This document shows positions 5,912 to 12,995 of a stretch of 48,345 nucleotides of DNA, piece after piece. The first letter of the stretch is position 1, and the number at the start of each line of letters is the position of its first letter. Below the pieces are notes generated by a model, which was given only the letters and a program-made list of their open reading frames with translations, was not told the origin of the DNA and did no database searches. Origin of the DNA: a virus (Duplodnaviria; Caudoviricetes); IMG/VR virus record IMGVR_UViG_3300037782_000051, positions 1 to 48,345 of that record; one strand, given 5' to 3'. The position numbers and the translations under genes are program-made.

Positions 5912-6087
5912 AAGACGAAAAATTTGAAATTCGCCATTTGCGCATGGAGATAAAACGCGAAACAGCCTGCGCTCAGCAAGCGGAGGATTGCGGCAAACAT
6001 GAGCTTGCTAAAGCCTATCGGCAGGGGCTGAAGGGTAAGAAAAAGAGGTTGAAGGAATTGGAGGTTAGACGGGGAGGTTGTGTGTAG
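5908..6087 (+). CDS. 59-aa basic hypothetical protein whose stop lies in the first attC-like half-site
   Basis: Manual translation MKDEKFEIRHLRMEIKRE...KELEVRRGGCV*. Confidence 0.6.
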   Translation: MKDEKFEIRHLRMEIKRETACAQQAEDCGKHELAKAYRQGLKGKKKRLKELEVRRGGCV

Positions 6088-6096
6088 CTGTAGTTA
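6073..6096 (+). repeat. Truncated attC-like site (right arm only)
   Basis: GGAGGTTGTGTGTAGCTGTAGTTA is 23/24 identical to 9469-9492. No left arm is present upstream. Confidence 0.8.
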
Positions 6097-6228
6097 TACC
6101 TAGCGAAACCAATAAATGTTCCGGCTGCTGGAGGATGCGGAAGCAGCTAGAGAAACCAATATCGGGCATCCACATTTATTCATCATCGCCTATTCCTTTT
6201 GGCATGGGGCGCTAAAATCTTATTTAAA

Positions 6229-6438
6229 ATGGAAACGACTTACATCATAATCAACCCAAAAACCAATTCTTACTTTGAGGGTTTTTTTGCTGGAAATACC
6301 AACCAGATTACATGGACAGATGATTATTCTGAAGCTGTACATTATTCCTCTGTAGAAGAAATAGAGAACGCAAACTTCTATGTAAAGGGAGATATTCATA
6401 AAGTTGAACATAAAATTAGCGCCCTAGCTAGGGTATAA
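6229..6438 (+). CDS. Cassette 1 cargo (cassette 6093-6439), hypothetical 69 aa
   Basis: ATG after TTTAAA; the stop TAA lies within the TAAC core. Confidence 0.75.
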   Translation: METTYIIINPKTNSYFEGFFAGNTNQITWTDDYSEAVHYSSVEEIENANFYVKGDIHKVEHKISALARV

Positions 6439-6495
6439 CGTACAAGTACTGGCGCTGTGCCGACTGTAAGGAGGTATAGGCGCTAGTACGTTGGT
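6437..6495 (+). repeat. attC-like hairpin 1 (AAC...GGT)
   Basis: GTACTGGCGC/GCGCTAGTAC stem with apical CCGACTGTAAGGAGG. Confidence 0.8.
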
Positions 6496-6625
6496 GTACG
6501 ACGGCTACCAATAGATAGTCGGCTGAGCGACAGTAGGAGCCAGCTAAAGAAACTCTACTCAGGCATCATCTTGTATCAATAGAATTTATTTCAAAGGGCA
6601 GTGCGCCCTTAAAACTATAATTACA

Positions 6626-6874
6626 ATGAATCCTTTTCAACCCTTTAATTACCCTAATCAAAACGACCAATTAAGAAAGAATCAACATCAACAACCCAGA
6701 ACTAAATTTAAGGACATTCAGGTAGGGGACGTCTTTAAACTAGAATGGTCTGGAGGATATACTTTATTTGAAAAAAAATCTAAATCCACGGCAATTGTAT
6801 TAGAATCAGAAATCAAATCTCCTGTTTTTGAGGTTGGAGATATTGAAAATTTCAATCCTAATTCACTTATTTAG
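6626..6874 (+). CDS. Cassette 2 cargo (cassette 6493-6893), hypothetical 82 aa
   Basis: ATG 133 nt after the GGT core; the TAG abuts the inner repeat GGCGCAC. Confidence 0.75.
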   Translation: MNPFQPFNYPNQNDQLRKNQHQQPRTKFKDIQVGDVFKLEWSGGYTLFEKKSKSTAIVLESEIKSPVFEVGDIENFNPNSLI

Positions 6875-6890
6875 GCGCACGCTGTCGTAC

Positions 6891-6954
6891 ACCGTACAGG
6901 GCTACACGCCGTGCTGCTGGGGACTCGGTTGGGGCATGGTGTGTAGCTGTAGTT
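6891..6954 (+). repeat. attC-like hairpin 2 (ACC...GTT)
   Basis: GCTACACGCCGTGC/GCATGGTGTGTAGC stem. Confidence 0.85.
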
Positions 6955-7083
6955 ATGCACCGGCTTAATTCTAATCATACGGCCCTGCGACAATAGGAGC
7001 TGGGCTTAAGAAATTATAATCGGGCAATATTGCCTTTCATTTCAAGGCTCATTCTTCGGGTGCGCCGCTTAAATCAAATTAAA

Positions 7084-7371
7084 ATGACAACATTAGAGCA
7101 AGTTAAAACAGTGCCTATCAATATTTTGCTTGAAAAAGTATGGCCCTGTGGTTTATGCTTAATGCGAGATTGTATGTGGATTGCTTTCTGGGAAAATGAA
7201 GATGAAGAAACGGCCTATACTCAAGATTCAGATTCTTTTGAAGATTTTATTTACAGGGTGATTGCAGATCAAATTGAAAACGGAGATGTTGACCATGAAG
7301 GTTTTAATCACATATCAATTGACTTTGCTATAGCATCAGTTGAGTACAATGAAGCGGCGGCTGGTGCATAA
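7084..7371 (+). CDS. Cassette 3 cargo (cassette 6952-7372), acidic hypothetical 95 aa
   Basis: ATG at 7084 after an A-rich stretch; the stop lies in the TAAC core. Confidence 0.75.
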   Translation: MTTLEQVKTVPINILLEKVWPCGLCLMRDCMWIAFWENEDEETAYTQDSDSFEDFIYRVIADQIENGDVDHEGFNHISIDFAIASVEYNEAAAGA

Positions 7372-7435
7372 CGTGCAGAGCTACCCGCCGTACAGCTTAG
7401 GCCGAGCGTTGGCGTATGGCGGGTAGCGTGTAGTT
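7370..7435 (+). repeat. attC-like hairpin 3 (AAC...GTT)
   Basis: GCTACCCGCCGTAC/GTATGGCGGGTAGC stem. Confidence 0.85.
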
Positions 7436-7567
7436 ATACCTAGCGAAACCAATAAATGTTCCGGCTGCTGGAGGATGCGGAAGCAGCTAGAGAAACCAAT
7501 ACCGGGCATCCATATTTATTCATCATTGCTTAATCCTTTTGGCAGGTGCGGCATAAATTAATCAGAA

Positions 7568-7876
7568 ATGAAATACCCTGAATCAATAATCAAAAAGCTA
7601 GTAATTGCATTTATTGTCATTCTTATATTCAATGCAATTATTTTTTACAGAATGGGGTATCACCAATCAAAGGTTGACATCGCCCACGAATACCCAATCT
7701 TCAATTTGAAAAATGAAGTCTTCAACGATGTTGAGTTTGAAGATGGAATGATATACTTTATGGGCGGTGTCAGCCATAATCACACAGTATACACCTATGA
7801 ATCTGATACATTAATTTTCTTATTCACATATCACCCAATGTCTGGTGTTTTTCTTGAAAAAGAATTGCCGCACTAG
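7568..7876 (+). CDS. Cassette 4 cargo (cassette 7433-7888), N-terminal membrane-anchored protein
   Basis: KKLVIAFIVILIFNAIIFY hydrophobic segment; leader nearly identical to cassette 1. Confidence 0.75.
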   Translation: MKYPESIIKKLVIAFIVILIFNAIIFYRMGYHQSKVDIAHEYPIFNLKNEVFNDVEFEDGMIYFMGGVSHNHTVYTYESDTLIFLFTYHPMSGVFLEKELPH

Positions 7877-7885
7877 CTAGGGTAT

Positions 7886-7942
7886 AACGGACGAGTACTG
7901 GCGCAGGCCTGAGGTACGAAGGCTTGGCGCTAGTATGTTGGT
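7886..7942 (+). repeat. attC-like hairpin 4 (AAC...GGT)
   Basis: GTACTGGCGC/GCGCTAGTAT stem with apical CCTGAGGTACGAAGG; same family as hairpin 1. Confidence 0.82.
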
Positions 7943-8072
7943 GTGTGCAGTTAAACCCTTAATCATAGGGTGAGCGACAGTAGGAGCGAACAAGAACAAA
8001 CCCACAACGGGTATCACAATAATTCTTTCACAGTCTAATCCTCCGGGAGCGGGCGCTTAAAACTTAATTACG

Positions 8073-8342
8073 ATGAAACAAGAATTGAATTTTATGGATG
8101 TTGATCTCGGTCACTTTGATACCGAATCGAAAACTTTTCACCCTAATATAGATAATGTAAAATCAATTGAAGTGATGGGGGAAAACAATTGCAACAATCC
8201 AGAAATTATGGGGTCTATTGAAATTGTATGTTACGATGAAAAATGGGATTGGCCAATTTTCATGTGGGTTAGAGAAGATAAGATAACACTATCAACAAGT
8301 GTATCGTATAGCAACCGCCGAAAAGTAATTTATCTTTCTTAG
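8073..8342 (+). CDS. Cassette 5 cargo (cassette 7940-8360), hypothetical 89 aa
   Basis: ATG 133 nt after the GGT core. Confidence 0.75.
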   Translation: MKQELNFMDVDLGHFDTESKTFHPNIDNVKSIEVMGENNCNNPEIMGSIEIVCYDEKWDWPIFMWVREDKITLSTSVSYSNRRKVIYLS

Positions 8343-8357
8343 CGACCGATTGCACAC

Positions 8358-8417
8358 ACCGGACGGGGCTACCCGGCGTATGGAGCGCAGCGTAATATGA
8401 TCGGGTAGCATAGTGTT
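8358..8417 (+). repeat. attC-like hairpin 5 (ACC...GTT)
   Basis: GCTACCCGG/TCGGGTAGC stem. Confidence 0.78.
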
Positions 8418-8538
8418 GGGTGCAGGCGTACAAATAATAGTGCGGCGAGTGACGATAGGAACGAGTGACAAGAAACCCTAAACTGGTATTTATTAATTCC
8501 TTTCTTTACTCTTAATCGGGGTAGAGCAGGGAGCGAAG

Positions 8539-8626
8539 AACGGTTGGGTGTATGGTGTGTAGCTGACACCACTAACTTTCGGCTAAAGAACTAATGTTTA
8601 ATCTGCTATACACTATATATTGTGTT
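8539..8626 (+). repeat. Nested longer attC-like hairpin of a different family inside cassette 6
   Basis: AAC...GTGTATGGTGTGTAGC / GCTATACACTATATAT...GTT; all non-Watson-Crick pairs in this stem are G-T. Confidence 0.72.
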
Positions 8627-8648
8627 AGCCACCGTAAATACTAAGATT

Positions 8649-8879
8649 ATGATTTTAGAAACAGGATTCAAACTACCACGAGATAAAGGCGTGATTCGAT
8701 TTGGTGATGTACTTAAAAGTAGTATGACACATGATGTAGTAGTAATGTTCCATCAAGGACAGAAGAAACCTATCGTAAAAGTGATAGATGAAGATATTTG
8801 GTTTGAACTTGAAGAGTTTCTTGACTCATGTGGTTCACGTCTTGAAATTAGCCACAACATTAATTATTATTGTGGCTAA
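8649..8879 (+). CDS. Nested cassette cargo (GTTAGCCAC 8624 ... GTGGCTAAT 8880) within cassette 6 (8415-8950); weakly YopX-like
   Basis: ATG at 8649. IRFGDVL...LEISHNI loosely recalls the YopX C-terminal pattern. Confidence 0.65.
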   Translation: MILETGFKLPRDKGVIRFGDVLKSSMTHDVVVMFHQGQKKPIVKVIDEDIWFELEEFLDSCGSRLEISHNINYYCG

Positions 8880-8921
8880 TACTTATCCATGTTCAACATT
8901 TCATTGAATATAGATATAGTT
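8878..8921 (+). repeat. Degenerate nested attC-like hairpin (AAT...GTT)
   Basis: TATCCATGTTCAA/TTGAATATAGATA imperfect stem. Confidence 0.55.
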
Positions 8922-8947
8922 CTTCCCTCCCTGCGGAGCTTGCACCC

Positions 8948-9003
8948 AACGTACAGGGCTACACGCAGGCGCGAGGCACGAGTGCTTGTGTGTAGCTGTA
9001 GTT
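8948..9003 (+). repeat. attC-like hairpin 6 (AAC...GTT)
   Basis: TACAGG-GCTACACGCAGGC/GCTTGTGTGTAGC-TGTA with apical GCGAGGCACGAGT. Confidence 0.85.
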
Positions 9004-9133
9004 ATGCACCGTTTTAACCAGCAGTAGACGAGCCGTAGTGTGCGAAGGCGGGTGACTAATTAATCGGGTAACAAACAATTATTATTTATTCATTTTTATC
9101 TGGCGGCTTAATCGTCAGCAAAACACAACAATC

Positions 9134-9409
9134 ATGCAAACATCAAAAAGAACTGAAATTCATGTAAACCAGCGAATGATTGAAATTCTATCTAAAGGCG
9201 ATTATATCCCATCGCTAGAGGAAGAATTTCAGATCAATTATACCACACGCGGGGTACTTCGCAATGATACCTTAAAGGTTGTAAAAATTGAAGATGAAAC
9301 ACACACAAGTGAACCAACTCAATTTCTACCTGAGATAGAAACCGTTGTAACAAAAATTCACTGTGAAGTTGTAAAGAACCATCATAAACAAAGATTTTCA
9401 TCATATTGA
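9134..9409 (+). CDS. Cassette 7 cargo (cassette 9001-9431), hypothetical 91 aa
   Basis: ATG 133 nt after the GTT core; bracketed by TGGCGGCT/AGCCGCCA. Confidence 0.75.
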   Translation: MQTSKRTEIHVNQRMIEILSKGDYIPSLEEEFQINYTTRGVLRNDTLKVVKIEDETHTSEPTQFLPEIETVVTKIHCEVVKNHHKQRFSSY

Positions 9410-9428
9410 TAGCCGCCAAATGGTGCAT

Positions 9429-9491
9429 AACGTACAGGGCTACACGCAGCCTGTTCAGCCCTCGCGTTGGAGGTTGCGTGTAGCTGTAGTT
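9429..9491 (+). repeat. attC-like hairpin 7 (AAC...GTT)
   Basis: GCTACACGCAGCCT/AGGTTGCGTGTAGC stem. Confidence 0.85.
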
Positions 9492-9616
9492 AGGTACTGC
9501 GAAACAACTAAATGGTCAAGGCGGCGATAGCAAGCCGGGTGACTATAACAACAGGCATCAAACCAGTATTCATCATTCATTTTCTTCGGGCGACTGCCAG
9601 CGTAAATAATAATCGA

Positions 9617-10252
9617 ATGCAAAACAAATTCTTAAATATTGATTGTATGGACGAGCGGGAAGGGCTGCCGTCTTATCCTGATAATTTCTTTGATCTTGCT
9701 ATTGTAGATCCACCTTATGGGTTAGATATAGGTAATTCTCCTAGAATTGTAACAGATAAGGGTATCAAGGGCAAGTCTTGGGATTCAATGATACCTGATA
9801 GAGAATACTTTGAACAGTTAAATCGGGTATCTAAAAATCAAATTATTTGGGGCTGGAATTATTTTGTCCCATTTTTATCTTCTTGTCAATGCTATATCGT
9901 TTGGTACAAGCATCAACCTGTCAAATCTTTTGCAGATTGTGAAAGTGCTTATACATCGTTCAAAAGACCCGCTGTTGTTTTTGACTTTAGATACTATGGG
10001 AATATTGAAGGCGGGACAAAAGCTAGTTTGAAAATTCATCCTACTCAAAAACCAATAAAGCTGTATCAAAGGACTTTAACGGAATTTGCCAAACCGGGCG
10101 ACCTTATTCTTGATACTCATGTTGGTTCTGCATCATCATTAATCGCTTTTGAAAGTATGGGATTCAATTACCATGCTTTTGAAATTGATGAAGATTATTA
10201 TAAGGCAGCCCTGGAGCGCATGCGGGCGGGCATTCAAACAGCAATTTTTTAG
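9617..10252 (+). CDS. Cassette 8 cargo (cassette 9489-10273): N6-adenine/N4-cytosine DNA methyltransferase, beta-class motif order
   Basis: Catalytic DPPY, then HPTQKP, then SAM-binding ILDTHVGSAS and FEIDEDYY. Confidence 0.9.
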   Translation: MQNKFLNIDCMDEREGLPSYPDNFFDLAIVDPPYGLDIGNSPRIVTDKGIKGKSWDSMIPDREYFEQLNRVSKNQIIWGWNYFVPFLSSCQCYIVWYKHQPVKSFADCESAYTSFKRPAVVFDFRYYGNIEGGTKASLKIHPTQKPIKLYQRTLTEFAKPGDLILDTHVGSASSLIAFESMGFNYHAFEIDEDYYKAALERMRAGIQTAIF

Positions 10253-10270
10253 CTGGCAGTAGTAGTACCT

Positions 10271-10335
10271 AACGGACAAAGCTACACGCTGCCACGCCCA
10301 GCCCTCGGTTCGCCGGTAGCGTGTAGCGTGATGGT
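10271..10335 (+). repeat. attC-like hairpin 8 (AAC...GGT)
   Basis: GCTACACGCTGCC/GGTAGCGTGTAGC stem. Confidence 0.85.
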
Positions 10336-10482
10336 GTGTGATGTGATATTCAAATAACTGAGCTGCGACGATAGGAGCGCGGCTGTATTAATACCCCCGA
10401 GCCTGTGGAGGCCGGGGGAGAATGAACTAAATTTTTTCATGGCCTAACCCTACTCGGGCAGGCAGGCGTAAAATAATTTTAA

Positions 10483-10671
10483 ATGAAAGATCAAAAGAAA
10501 AGTGTTGAAAATAAACCTAAAAGAAAACCTTGGAATTACGGGAAAAGAAAACCCATTGTAGATGAAATGGGGAATAAATGGTGTAATTGCATAGAACCAA
10601 AACTAACTTCTAATTCAGGTGTAGGTGGTCAAGCATATTGTTTAAAATGTCATTCAAATTGGTATCATTAG
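10483..10671 (+). CDS. Cassette 9 cargo (cassette 10333-10690), small basic Zn-ribbon-like protein
   Basis: CNC...CLKCH cysteine pairs. Confidence 0.65.
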   Translation: MKDQKKSVENKPKRKPWNYGKRKPIVDEMGNKWCNCIEPKLTSNSGVGGQAYCLKCHSNWYH

Positions 10672-10687
10672 CCTGCCCATATCACAC

Positions 10688-10743
10688 ACCGGACGGGGCT
10701 ACACGCAGGGCTGAGGTACGAAGCCTTGAGTGTAGCTGTAGTT
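10688..10743 (+). repeat. attC-like hairpin 9 (ACC...GTT)
   Basis: GCTACACGCAGGGC/GCCTTGAGTGTAGC stem with apical CTGAGGTACGAAG. Confidence 0.85.
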
Positions 10744-10891
10744 ACATGGCGTTTTAACCTATAATAGTCAAGCAGCGACAGTAGGAGCGCGGGTGACTTT
10801 TCTACTCAGCTACAAACCCTTTCCAATCCTGTCTATTCCGTGTGCGGCCCTAAACTAAATATACTTTGTGTATAAAATAATTGATATAAAA

Positions 10892-10924
10892 CTTGCGCGT
10901 GTGGTATACTTATTGTATATTGCA
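10892..10924 (+). promoter_or_regulatory. Promoter inside cassette 10 (CTTG-N20-TATATTGCA)
   Basis: Same spacing as 5311 and 32051; followed by an A-rich leader. Confidence 0.65.
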
Positions 10925-10953
10925 GCATCATTAACAACAAAACAATATAAATC

Positions 10954-11184
10954 ATGAAAAAGTACCTAGTAAATACCTTATTGAATATCATTCACGAGGT
11001 ATCTGAAATTGGAGGTGAAGTTGATCGCACAGATTTCATTCGTGCTGATGGAAGCAAAGGATGCGTTTTTGGTAAAGAATGGAAAACCATGCACGCAGAT
11101 AATGAGGAAGATATAAAAAATCACCTCCGAAAGCACAGAGAGTATTATTGCAGGATTAACGGATATAGCACTTTAGAACTTTAA
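10954..11184 (+). CDS. Cassette 10 (10741-11414) cargo gene 1, hypothetical 76 aa
   Basis: ATG after the promoter and A-rich leader. Confidence 0.75.
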   Translation: MKKYLVNTLLNIIHEVSEIGGEVDRTDFIRADGSKGCVFGKEWKTMHADNEEDIKNHLRKHREYYCRINGYSTLEL

Positions 11185-11227
11185 CCCAAGCCCCCGCGAT
11201 AACATCAACGGGGCTAAATCTTTTATT

Positions 11228-11413
11228 GTGGATAAAATCATTTCTATCTACCTCGAAAACCAAACCGAGAAAGCAAATCGGCTTGGTAAACACCGTCAAA
11301 CATTAGTGGCTTGGAAACGCAACCCTTCTCAGGCTAGCTTGCAATTGATCGAAGAAGACCTTAAAGCGCTTCTTCTTCTAATACAAGAATACAAGACCGC
11401 AAATGCCATGTAA
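11228..11413 (+). CDS. Cassette 10 cargo gene 2, HTH-like 61 aa
   Basis: QTEKANRLGKHRQTLVAWKRNP resembles an HTH; GTG start; the stop lies in the TAAC core. Confidence 0.6.
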   Translation: MDKIISIYLENQTEKANRLGKHRQTLVAWKRNPSQASLQLIEEDLKALLLLIQEYKTANAM

Positions 11414-11426
11414 CTACATAACACCC

Positions 11427-11468
11427 GCAACCCCGTATGTAAACGCTTGTAAACGACTACGGGGTTGC
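11427..11468. repeat. Perfect 11-bp inverted repeat closing the array
   Basis: GCAACCCCGTA...TACGGGGTTGC, 12 nt after the last AAC core. Confidence 0.7.
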
Positions 11469-12152: not shown

Positions 12153-12995
12153 ATGAAAACAGTAACATCAATATCAGGCGGAAAAACATCTGCTTATCTT
12201 GCTACTCATTACCCTACTGATTACAACGTTTTCTCTTTGGTTAGAATAGAGGACAAAAGTGCTGCGTTCCCTGATAAGAAAATTAGGCAAATAGTAGAGG
12301 ATAAAATCCAAAAGCAATTTATTGCTACAGCTGAAGATGATACTATCATTTACACAATTCTTGATCTTGAGCAGCATATCGGCAGAAAGATACATTGGGT
12401 ATCAGGCGACACCTTTGACAGCGTTATCGAACAAAAAGGCGGTTATCTTCCTAACAAGATGCAACGTTTTTGCACTTCAGAAATGAAGTTAAAGCCTATT
12501 TTTTATTGGTGGGCAGAAACAATAAGCGAACCAATAAAAATGCAAATTGGCTACCGGGCTAATGAGCAAAGAAGAGCAAACACTATGCTATCTAAGTGCA
12601 ATGAAGACGGATTGCTCGAATATAAAGCAACATTTGAAAAGCACTCAAATGGGAACAATAAATGGGAGCAAATACCATGGCAAAAACCATCATTCCCGCT
12701 TATTGATAACGCTGTTTTTCGTGACCAGATAGAAAACTATTGGACTGGTCAAACCGTCCGTTTTGCTGATTACAATAACTGTGTCGGCTGCTTTCATCGA
12801 AACCCCTTATTTCTTCGTAAGATGTGGGATAAACATCCAGCTAAGATGGATTGGTTTGAATCAAAAGAAACAGGGCCGAAAAACCCAAATTGGAGATCTG
12901 ATATATCTTATTCACAAATTAAGCAGCACCGCCCTCAATTTGAATTAGATTTTTCAGATTTTTCAGATTGCGATTCTGGATACTGCGGAATGTAA
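12153..12995 (+). CDS. PAPS-reductase-like (PP-loop) protein with Cys clusters
   Basis: SISGGKTS PP-loop, RFCTSEMK, IGYRANE, NCVGCF and terminal CDSGYCG. Confidence 0.8.
   Translation: MKTVTSISGGKTSAYLATHYPTDYNVFSLVRIEDKSAAFPDKKIRQIVEDKIQKQFIATAEDDTIIYTILDLEQHIGRKIHWVSGDTFDSVIEQKGGYLPNKMQRFCTSEMKLKPIFYWWAETISEPIKMQIGYRANEQRRANTMLSKCNEDGLLEYKATFEKHSNGNNKWEQIPWQKPSFPLIDNAVFRDQIENYWTGQTVRFADYNNCVGCFHRNPLFLRKMWDKHPAKMDWFESKETGPKNPNWRSDISYSQIKQHRPQFELDFSDFSDCDSGYCGM

Follow-up and report, generated by a model that had tools for sequence, protein, structure and literature searches.

It has long been asked how genes become packaged into integron-type cassettes. The classical integron cassettes described in PMC4889954, PMC8618304 and PMC8876359 are units of a hairpin plus a body, with complementary GTT/AAC ends and single-strand folding, and a site without a hairpin ends the array; novel cassettes are created by a mechanism described as unknown (PMC4889954). 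CALINs occur in virulent phages, including Polaribacter phage P12002L, which is a Bacteroidota phage (Qi et al. 2023, PMC9892861). Integron-type enzymes are also described as inserting cassettes at attG sites, which are neither attI nor attC and have a consensus of GWT at the cut (bioRxiv 10.1101/2022.09.11.507474), and the unusual delta-attI cassettes (PMC12901181) are grouped with this non-classical insertion. In addition, group IIC-attC introns invade attC sites, and fused cassettes exist (PMC8876359).

We analysed a window, by which we mean the whole stretch of DNA, here a complete phage record of 48 kb, that carries an array of attC-like hairpins and small ORFs. In our preferred reading, to which we give a probability of about 60 %, cassette 6 of this array is a constant frame with a slot that is likely filled site-specifically by hairpin-led cassettes, probably via a XerA-like recombinase of the host.

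By analogy, this system would work like integron cassettes and would stand closest to phage CALINs. As in the phage CALINs described in PMC9892861, several attC-like hairpins lie between small ORFs, a methyltransferase is among the cargo and no integrase was found in the phage; unlike those CALINs, as far as that source describes them, one cassette sits inside another here and a constant frame holds swapped cargo. The genes of the phage array are also on the folding strand, each hairpin preceding its gene, which differs from phage CALINs. With classical cassettes the locus shares the complementary ends, the apparent single-strand folding, the hairpin-plus-body units and the hairpin-less end of the array listed above. 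It differs from them in its inverted gene orientation, in the internal self-complementary site inside a cassette and in a candidate enzyme that, judged by profile scores, is under the TIGR02249 cut-off; on account of the gene orientation and the integrase, the label of classical integron is withheld. In classical attC the extra bases are positioned otherwise than on the 5' arm of the folded strand, where they lie here.

As in the attG and delta-attI cases, so far as their sources describe them, insertion at a site that is neither attI nor attC could place one cassette inside another. Unlike attG, the cut strand here reads ATT, and one spot takes several cargos whereas attG sites are many and scattered. 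Group IIC-attC introns and fused cassettes, as presented in PMC8876359, resemble the locus in nesting at a recombination hairpin and in the fixing of a gene by hairpin loss; unlike them, the insert here is a plain cassette without reverse transcriptase or transposase, and its target lies within the body of the host cassette. A literature search of titles and abstracts, with few subscription journals, found nothing on a cassette nested in a reusable frame, nor on the Bacteroidota enzyme system.

The phage and its cassette array

In PHROGs and Pfam scans of the ORFs, terminase, portal, tail and DnaB genes were present in the window, and the phage has a terminal repeat of 126 nt. Its portal protein matched 75 cultured phages, 74 of which are named for Bacteroidota genera; therefore, the host likely belongs to the phylum Bacteroidota. 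The same profile collections gave no recombinase or integrase in 65 chosen ORFs of the window, and a six-frame search of the phage gave no match to the tyrosine recombinase family PF00589. The phage has at least nine attC-like hairpins and no integrase was found in it; its likeness to CALINs is to be read with the fact that this class is itself defined by an attC covariance model.

The features are as follows, where chassis means the frame of cassette 6, and H1 and H2 are the left and right hairpins within it.

6087..11414, + strand: array of ten cassettes bounded by hairpins; no recombinase found; the two ends of each body are complementary to one another
8358..8417, + strand: junction hairpin preceding cassette 6, which moves with the chassis
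8415..8424, + strand: outer left end of the chassis, GTTGGGTGCA, 10/10 complementary to 8941-8950
8425..8525, + strand: conserved leader of the chassis, from the alignment of alleles
8526..8541, + strand: left inner arm with AAC as its last letters, where all alleles break on the left
8539..8626, + strand: H1, an 88-nt attC-like hairpin of a widespread Bacteroidota family, part of the inserted cassette
8624..8879, + strand: body of the inner cassette, GTTAGCCAC ... GTGGCTAA, ends complementary 8/9
8649..8879, + strand: 76-aa ORF of a small conserved family (ATG 8649, stop TAA 8877-8879)
8878..8921, + strand: H2, a 44-nt hairpin common to alleles A, B and F, the resident element and putative insertion target
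8919..8934, + strand: right inner arm, 15/16 in the window
8941..8950, + strand: outer right end of the chassis, TGCACCCAAC; the downstream sequence differs among alleles
11412..11427, + strand: array end without hairpin, a degenerate match to the bacterial attI-like motif

The pieces from which the initial annotation built a nested cassette are all in place: the inner arms, the 88-nt hairpin, a short-leader cassette running from GTTAGCCAC (8624) to GTGGCTAAT (8880), and the degenerate hairpin behind it. Taken alone, these pieces of the window exceed chance only modestly; in Markov simulations, a 15/16 inverted repeat with arms 100-1000 nt apart turned up in 16 of 200 sequences of array size and in 9 of 30 of window size. 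Both the chassis (10/10) and the inner cassette (8/9) have complementary GTT...AAC ends.

In nine junction stems, excluding H2, the site at 10272 and the half site on the array's left, the + strand has 10 G.T and 0 A.C pairs, and it is the lower in energy in all nine. Since G.T occurs without A.C on this strand, we take the gene-coding strand to be the folding strand. The phage ORFs lie on it, each behind its own hairpin, and not in the classical layout of a gene followed by attC, which holds in two bacterial arrays (L290 and L291). Most of the array's own hairpins fit a spacer difference of 3, two of nine having been fitted with 2. A pattern for this main hairpin family gave 25 raw pattern matches in genomes, and its second viral match was rejected as chance; of the 24 matches to the outer-end pattern, one was true.

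At the left end of the array (6068-6089), half a hairpin adjoins, without a break, the terminal part of a phage ORF of 59 aa. Scored with the bacterial attI-like motif, the right end (11412..11427) comes 20th among the 7854 AA-anchored words in the window, but each of the 29 bacterial attI-like sites scores higher. In one relative (L064:870-916) the array has shrunk to cassette 6 alone. The last cassette (window 10741-11414; L124:161-1193; L338:570-1397) holds several genes, the first ORF being variable; the window and L338 have a 61-aa ORF in common, and the array position differs among relatives. Ordinary cassettes (window 6093-6439 and 7433-7888; L063, L080, L124, L338) swap genes too, with near-identical leaders (95 % within the window) before unrelated ORFs and a short inner repeat that varies with the cargo, yet remains complementary. 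Leaders in the window (e.g. 6527-6540, 7974-7987, 10366-10379) have a recurring GCGAC-RRTA-GGAGC motif, which might fold into a small hairpin containing tandem G.A pairs. DNA modification recurs as a theme, as an N6/N4 methyltransferase cassette (9617-10252) and a nearby PAPS-reductase-like gene (12153-12995) join the Mom and D12 cargos of relatives.

Six contents in one frame

When the inner arms were used for scanning, true copies of the chassis made up 2 of the 21 loci matched in viruses (one contig), 8 of the 92 in metagenomes and 1 of the 5 in genomes. Six slot contents were found in one frame among related phage-type contigs:

Allele A (window, + strand): H1, the 76-aa cassette and H2
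Allele B (L009, L064, L065, L078 and part of L063, records that may represent one population): short left element, Mom-family gene and H2
Allele C (L080, L112): T5orf172/MUG113 (GIY-YIG-type) gene directly between the arms, without inner hairpins
Allele D (L124): starts with another long-family hairpin start; the contig stops before the right arm
Allele E (L139): another long-family hairpin start and a D12 methylase; the contig stops before the right arm
Allele F (L338, a contig of phage type from a Balneolaceae bin): collapsed left element of 10 nt, 65-aa ORF and H2

It is this comparison that establishes the nesting in cassette 6 proposed by the initial annotation: the inner arms, 15/16 in the window, are 16/16 in alleles B, C and F, and the frame is kept around different contents in related phages, five alternative inserts being found besides that of the window. 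Four complete and different contents (A, B, C, F) are held between both frame halves. The right sides of D and E lie beyond the contig ends, which counts against the preferred reading, as does the lack of inner hairpins in C. Three of the six contents are DNA-modifying or nuclease-type genes, which would be relevant to phage-host conflict.

Over its first 105 nt, the frame has an identity of 74-89 % among alleles A, B, C and F, and the cargo proteins have background identity only (11-18 %). The leader matched no Rfam family at gathering score, its one match (E 0.51) lying below that score, and a sigma-70 scan gave no match within it. The window, L063/L065, L080, L124 and L338 all have the same type of junction hairpin before the chassis, and the upstream neighbours of the chassis with its front hairpin are of three kinds; the partner behind the chassis varies among alleles, with the type of front hairpin constant. 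In the alignment, alleles A-E diverge 1-4 nt past the AAC of the left inner arm, and F does likewise; the crossover at this arm would be AA|C, 8540/8541. An unrelated contig (L083:2001-2048) has a terminator-like hairpin with the identical 16-nt arm sequence, probably by coincidence.

The empty form of cassette 6 that the initial annotation envisaged was not found among the true chassis copies of these scans, and the joined junction of an emptied frame occurred in none of 381 loci, which counts against the preferred reading. Contigs of the sequencing runs were covered for 4 of 24 runs; those of run X1 held no joint, and since contigs drop rare variants, absence is not implied.

H1 (folding z -1.23 for 88 nt on the + strand) has its first 16 nt at 117 viral loci. 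In Cellulophaga phage phi18:3, an H1 homolog (81 %) is followed by the same start GTTAGCCAC, a different ORF and the end GTGGCTAAC, so members of this hairpin family do stand before ORFs elsewhere, a point that had been left for searching. Of the 48 H1-family units flanked by 1200 nt or more, 41 had their own matching end downstream, and the left spacer is 3 nt longer than the right in 79 of the 84 distinct sites above the stem threshold. H1 had been called a hairpin of a foreign family; it is foreign in sequence, but in geometry it does not differ from the hairpins native to the array. Therefore, the cross-talk that had been suggested between hairpin families holds in that two sequence families share one array, but a single enzyme suffices for it.

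The 76-aa ORF, whose stop doubles as part of the right end of the cassette, has 12 homologs (58-88 % identity), no Pfam or PHROG family, and nothing above 0.76 (best score) in the protein atlas. For seven homologs, upstream read-through translations match the leader and, in most, the right arm of H1 too. A 151-nt contig of sequencing run X4 (depth 2) matches 8769-8879 and departs from the window exactly after 8879, its remaining 40 letters being unlike H2. The inner cassette had been expected in other arrays as well: with DNA context, none was found in viral and genome scans and cultured phages, and its support elsewhere consists of the protein read-throughs and the short X4 contigs only.

H2 is a real hairpin. 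From the AA at 8878-8879 onward it follows three unrelated cargos (A, B, F), and it is non-canonical, with AAT and a spacer difference of 1. Other junctions read AAC or ACC, and of the junctions examined H2 alone has T in place of C, in all three alleles; breakpoints at H1 and the outer junctions fit AA|C (G|TT), where H2 has AA|T. Its folding z in the window is -1.83 (+) and -2.28 (-), slightly better on the - strand, and -3.56 in allele B. Over the three alleles 95.8 % of cells are paired, with no compensatory change (row at register -2), which counts against the preferred reading. Exact patterns found no H2 outside the chassis, bar one match in a Bacteroides contig without arms, which was judged chance. 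An attI-like nature was suggested for H2 by a weak signal in a 17-site phage profile and rejected by a 29-site bacterial profile; against the TAA-CT-N4-TAT attI-like profile H2 scored -11 to -16.5, compared with a leave-one-out minimum of 5.6 for the 29 sites. H2 was likewise rejected as an attG secondary site, because GWT is required at the cut, where ATT stands on the opposite strand.

The left element differs in alleles A, B, D, E and F. Because H2 stays constant behind unrelated cargos, the left element varies, and H1 is found with the cassette elsewhere, the polarity of the initial annotation, with H1 as the resident site, has to be reversed: H1 arrives with the insert, and H2 is the resident element. 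The insert extends over 8541-8879 (339 bp), and not over 8624-8918 as first proposed, so a unit consists of a hairpin and the body that follows it, with a presumed cut at AA|C. Against this, hairpins and bodies are not strictly linked within the main array, where one chassis type occurs behind several hairpin types. The comparison yields exact substrates and computed product sizes, namely a 339-bp inner circle, a 590-bp circle of the whole cassette and a 251-bp emptied frame.

How the slot may be filled

The frame, its six contents, the breakpoints, the assignment of hairpins to units and the folding strand are directly supported. On the preferred reading, the empty frame would be a pair of 16-nt arms clamping the 44-nt hairpin H2, and a 339-bp circle of H1 plus body would insert at AA|T, before H2. 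A candidate host XerA-like recombinase would cut the folded gene-coding strand after AA. The hairpins may later erode (alleles B, F and C), which would lock the gene in place, and the collapsed hairpins in some alleles suggest such an insertion followed by erosion to a bare gene. Use of H2 by the candidate enzyme is unexplained, because H2 has AAT, a spacer difference of 1 and a score below all 29 bacterial sites; either the enzyme tolerates a site clamped by 16-nt arms, or H2 is a scar. If the enzyme does use this target, the rules now known for sites of single-strand cassette recombination would be too narrow. The cargo ends fit their own starts poorly in B (~6/10) and F (~7/11), by eye, which also counts against the preferred reading.

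It is possible, though we consider it doubtful, that cassette 6 is a mobile mini-platform, an integron within a cassette, with a leader and its own non-canonical site, which captures foreign cassettes with the help of a host Xer-like enzyme, after which both hairpins erode until a bare gene is left between the inner arms, and that all leader-plus-inner-repeat cassettes are so built. The alleles would then be stages, with A intact, the left hairpin collapsed in F and B, and both hairpins lost in C with traces of each. Allele C starts with seven letters of F's collapsed element and ends with the last six stem letters of H2, in register, and it resembles the ordinary cassettes of the array in its succession of inner arm, A-rich leader, ORF, stop and inner arm. 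If this erosion series is true, nesting and decay would be a visible route to new gene cassettes. Against the generality of the route, the inner repeats of the other chassis change with the cargo and lack AAC/GTT. The idea in the initial annotation that we see a snapshot of gene acquisition by the chassis fares in the same way: it fits the alleles of cassette 6, but other chassis swap ORFs without AAC/GTT.

An unlikely history is that H2 was once a standard site, took one cassette and lost two bases at the crossover, after which later cargos entered via the left AAC, older ones were deleted and H2 stayed behind as a dead scar. The same defect of H2 in A, B and F is what a single event would leave, two bases added after AA would restore the 5/2 spacing of the family, and B and F hold collapsed or relic pieces. 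However, clean loss of the old cargo would still require a crossover at the AA of H2, cargos A and F each end at this AA with their own end sequence, and a two-cassette intermediate is absent from the six alleles.

We rate slightly lower an exchange without any enzyme, by homologous or illegitimate recombination or by template switching at the long inverted repeat, with the hairpins as passengers from the arrays of other phages. The precision of the breakpoints speaks against it, since both junctions of allele A lie exactly at the family AA|, the X4 contig, which is independent, departs at that very base, and all six alleles break right past the same AAC. Such an exchange would suit the absence of any recombinase found in the phage, the non-canonical H2 and the ragged boundaries of allele C, as well as other chassis types, in which unrelated ORFs lie behind 83-95 % identical leaders (type 1) at junctions without AAC/GTT.

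That H1 is the resident site and the insert is body plus H2, read along the gene as in a classical integron, is largely refuted and very improbable. It would give the classical gene-then-attC layout, and the site left by removing 8625-8919 would fold well; but it would require five alleles with differing resident sites and, at the same time, one H2 shared by three unrelated cargos, elsewhere H1 moves with homologs of the 76-aa ORF and with these cassette ends, and H2 was not found outside the chassis. The notion of three ordinary units in a row whose ends pair by chance is refuted, for although a chance 15/16 repeat is not rare, the frame halves stay together around four complete contents and the outer and inner ends of cassette 6 pair solely in nested order.

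A candidate host recombinase

The start of H1 gave 47 matches in genomes, of which seven were inspected. H1-family arrays adjoin a tyrosine recombinase in two of these seven, in Flavobacterium cheonanense (L291) and in a Crocinitomicaceae bin (L290); in both arrays most genes lie on the non-folding strand, and the array closes at a hairpin-less AAC. The two recombinases pass NF040815 (226.5 and 229.4 bits, cut-off 220) and are below the cut-off of 265 for the integron integrase profile TIGR02249 (204.5 and 190.8), and their nearest solved relatives are archaeal XerA-type enzymes. In the integron-like subgroup of tyrosine recombinases, the integron-specific insertion is described as essential and as not fully conserved (PMC8138268). 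Homologs of the XerA-like recombinase are encoded by 57 of the 121 genomes in that class (one unpublished genome, G097, included). By analogy with these bacterial arrays, we infer that a host XerA-like enzyme may act on the phage array. The incomplete MAG that holds allele F gave no close homolog of the recombinase, which counts against the preferred reading. The named candidate is a XerA-like recombinase common in Bacteroidota, with a putative target that breaks the GTT rule.

The motif TAA-CT-N4-TAT lies 74-115 nt past the stop codon of the recombinase in 29 of 32 loci, which were chosen by a rule that favoured this motif. In these loci (among L291, L290 and L347-L381), the conserved motif ~100 nt past the stop of the NF040815 recombinase is an attI-like site of an integron-like system in Bacteroidota, and the enzyme points toward its array. 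The cassette next to the attI-like site in the Crocinitomicaceae bin (L290:6002-6739) seems to stem from a phage, its folding strand carrying an ORF that appears decayed, and suggests traffic from phage arrays to chromosomes.
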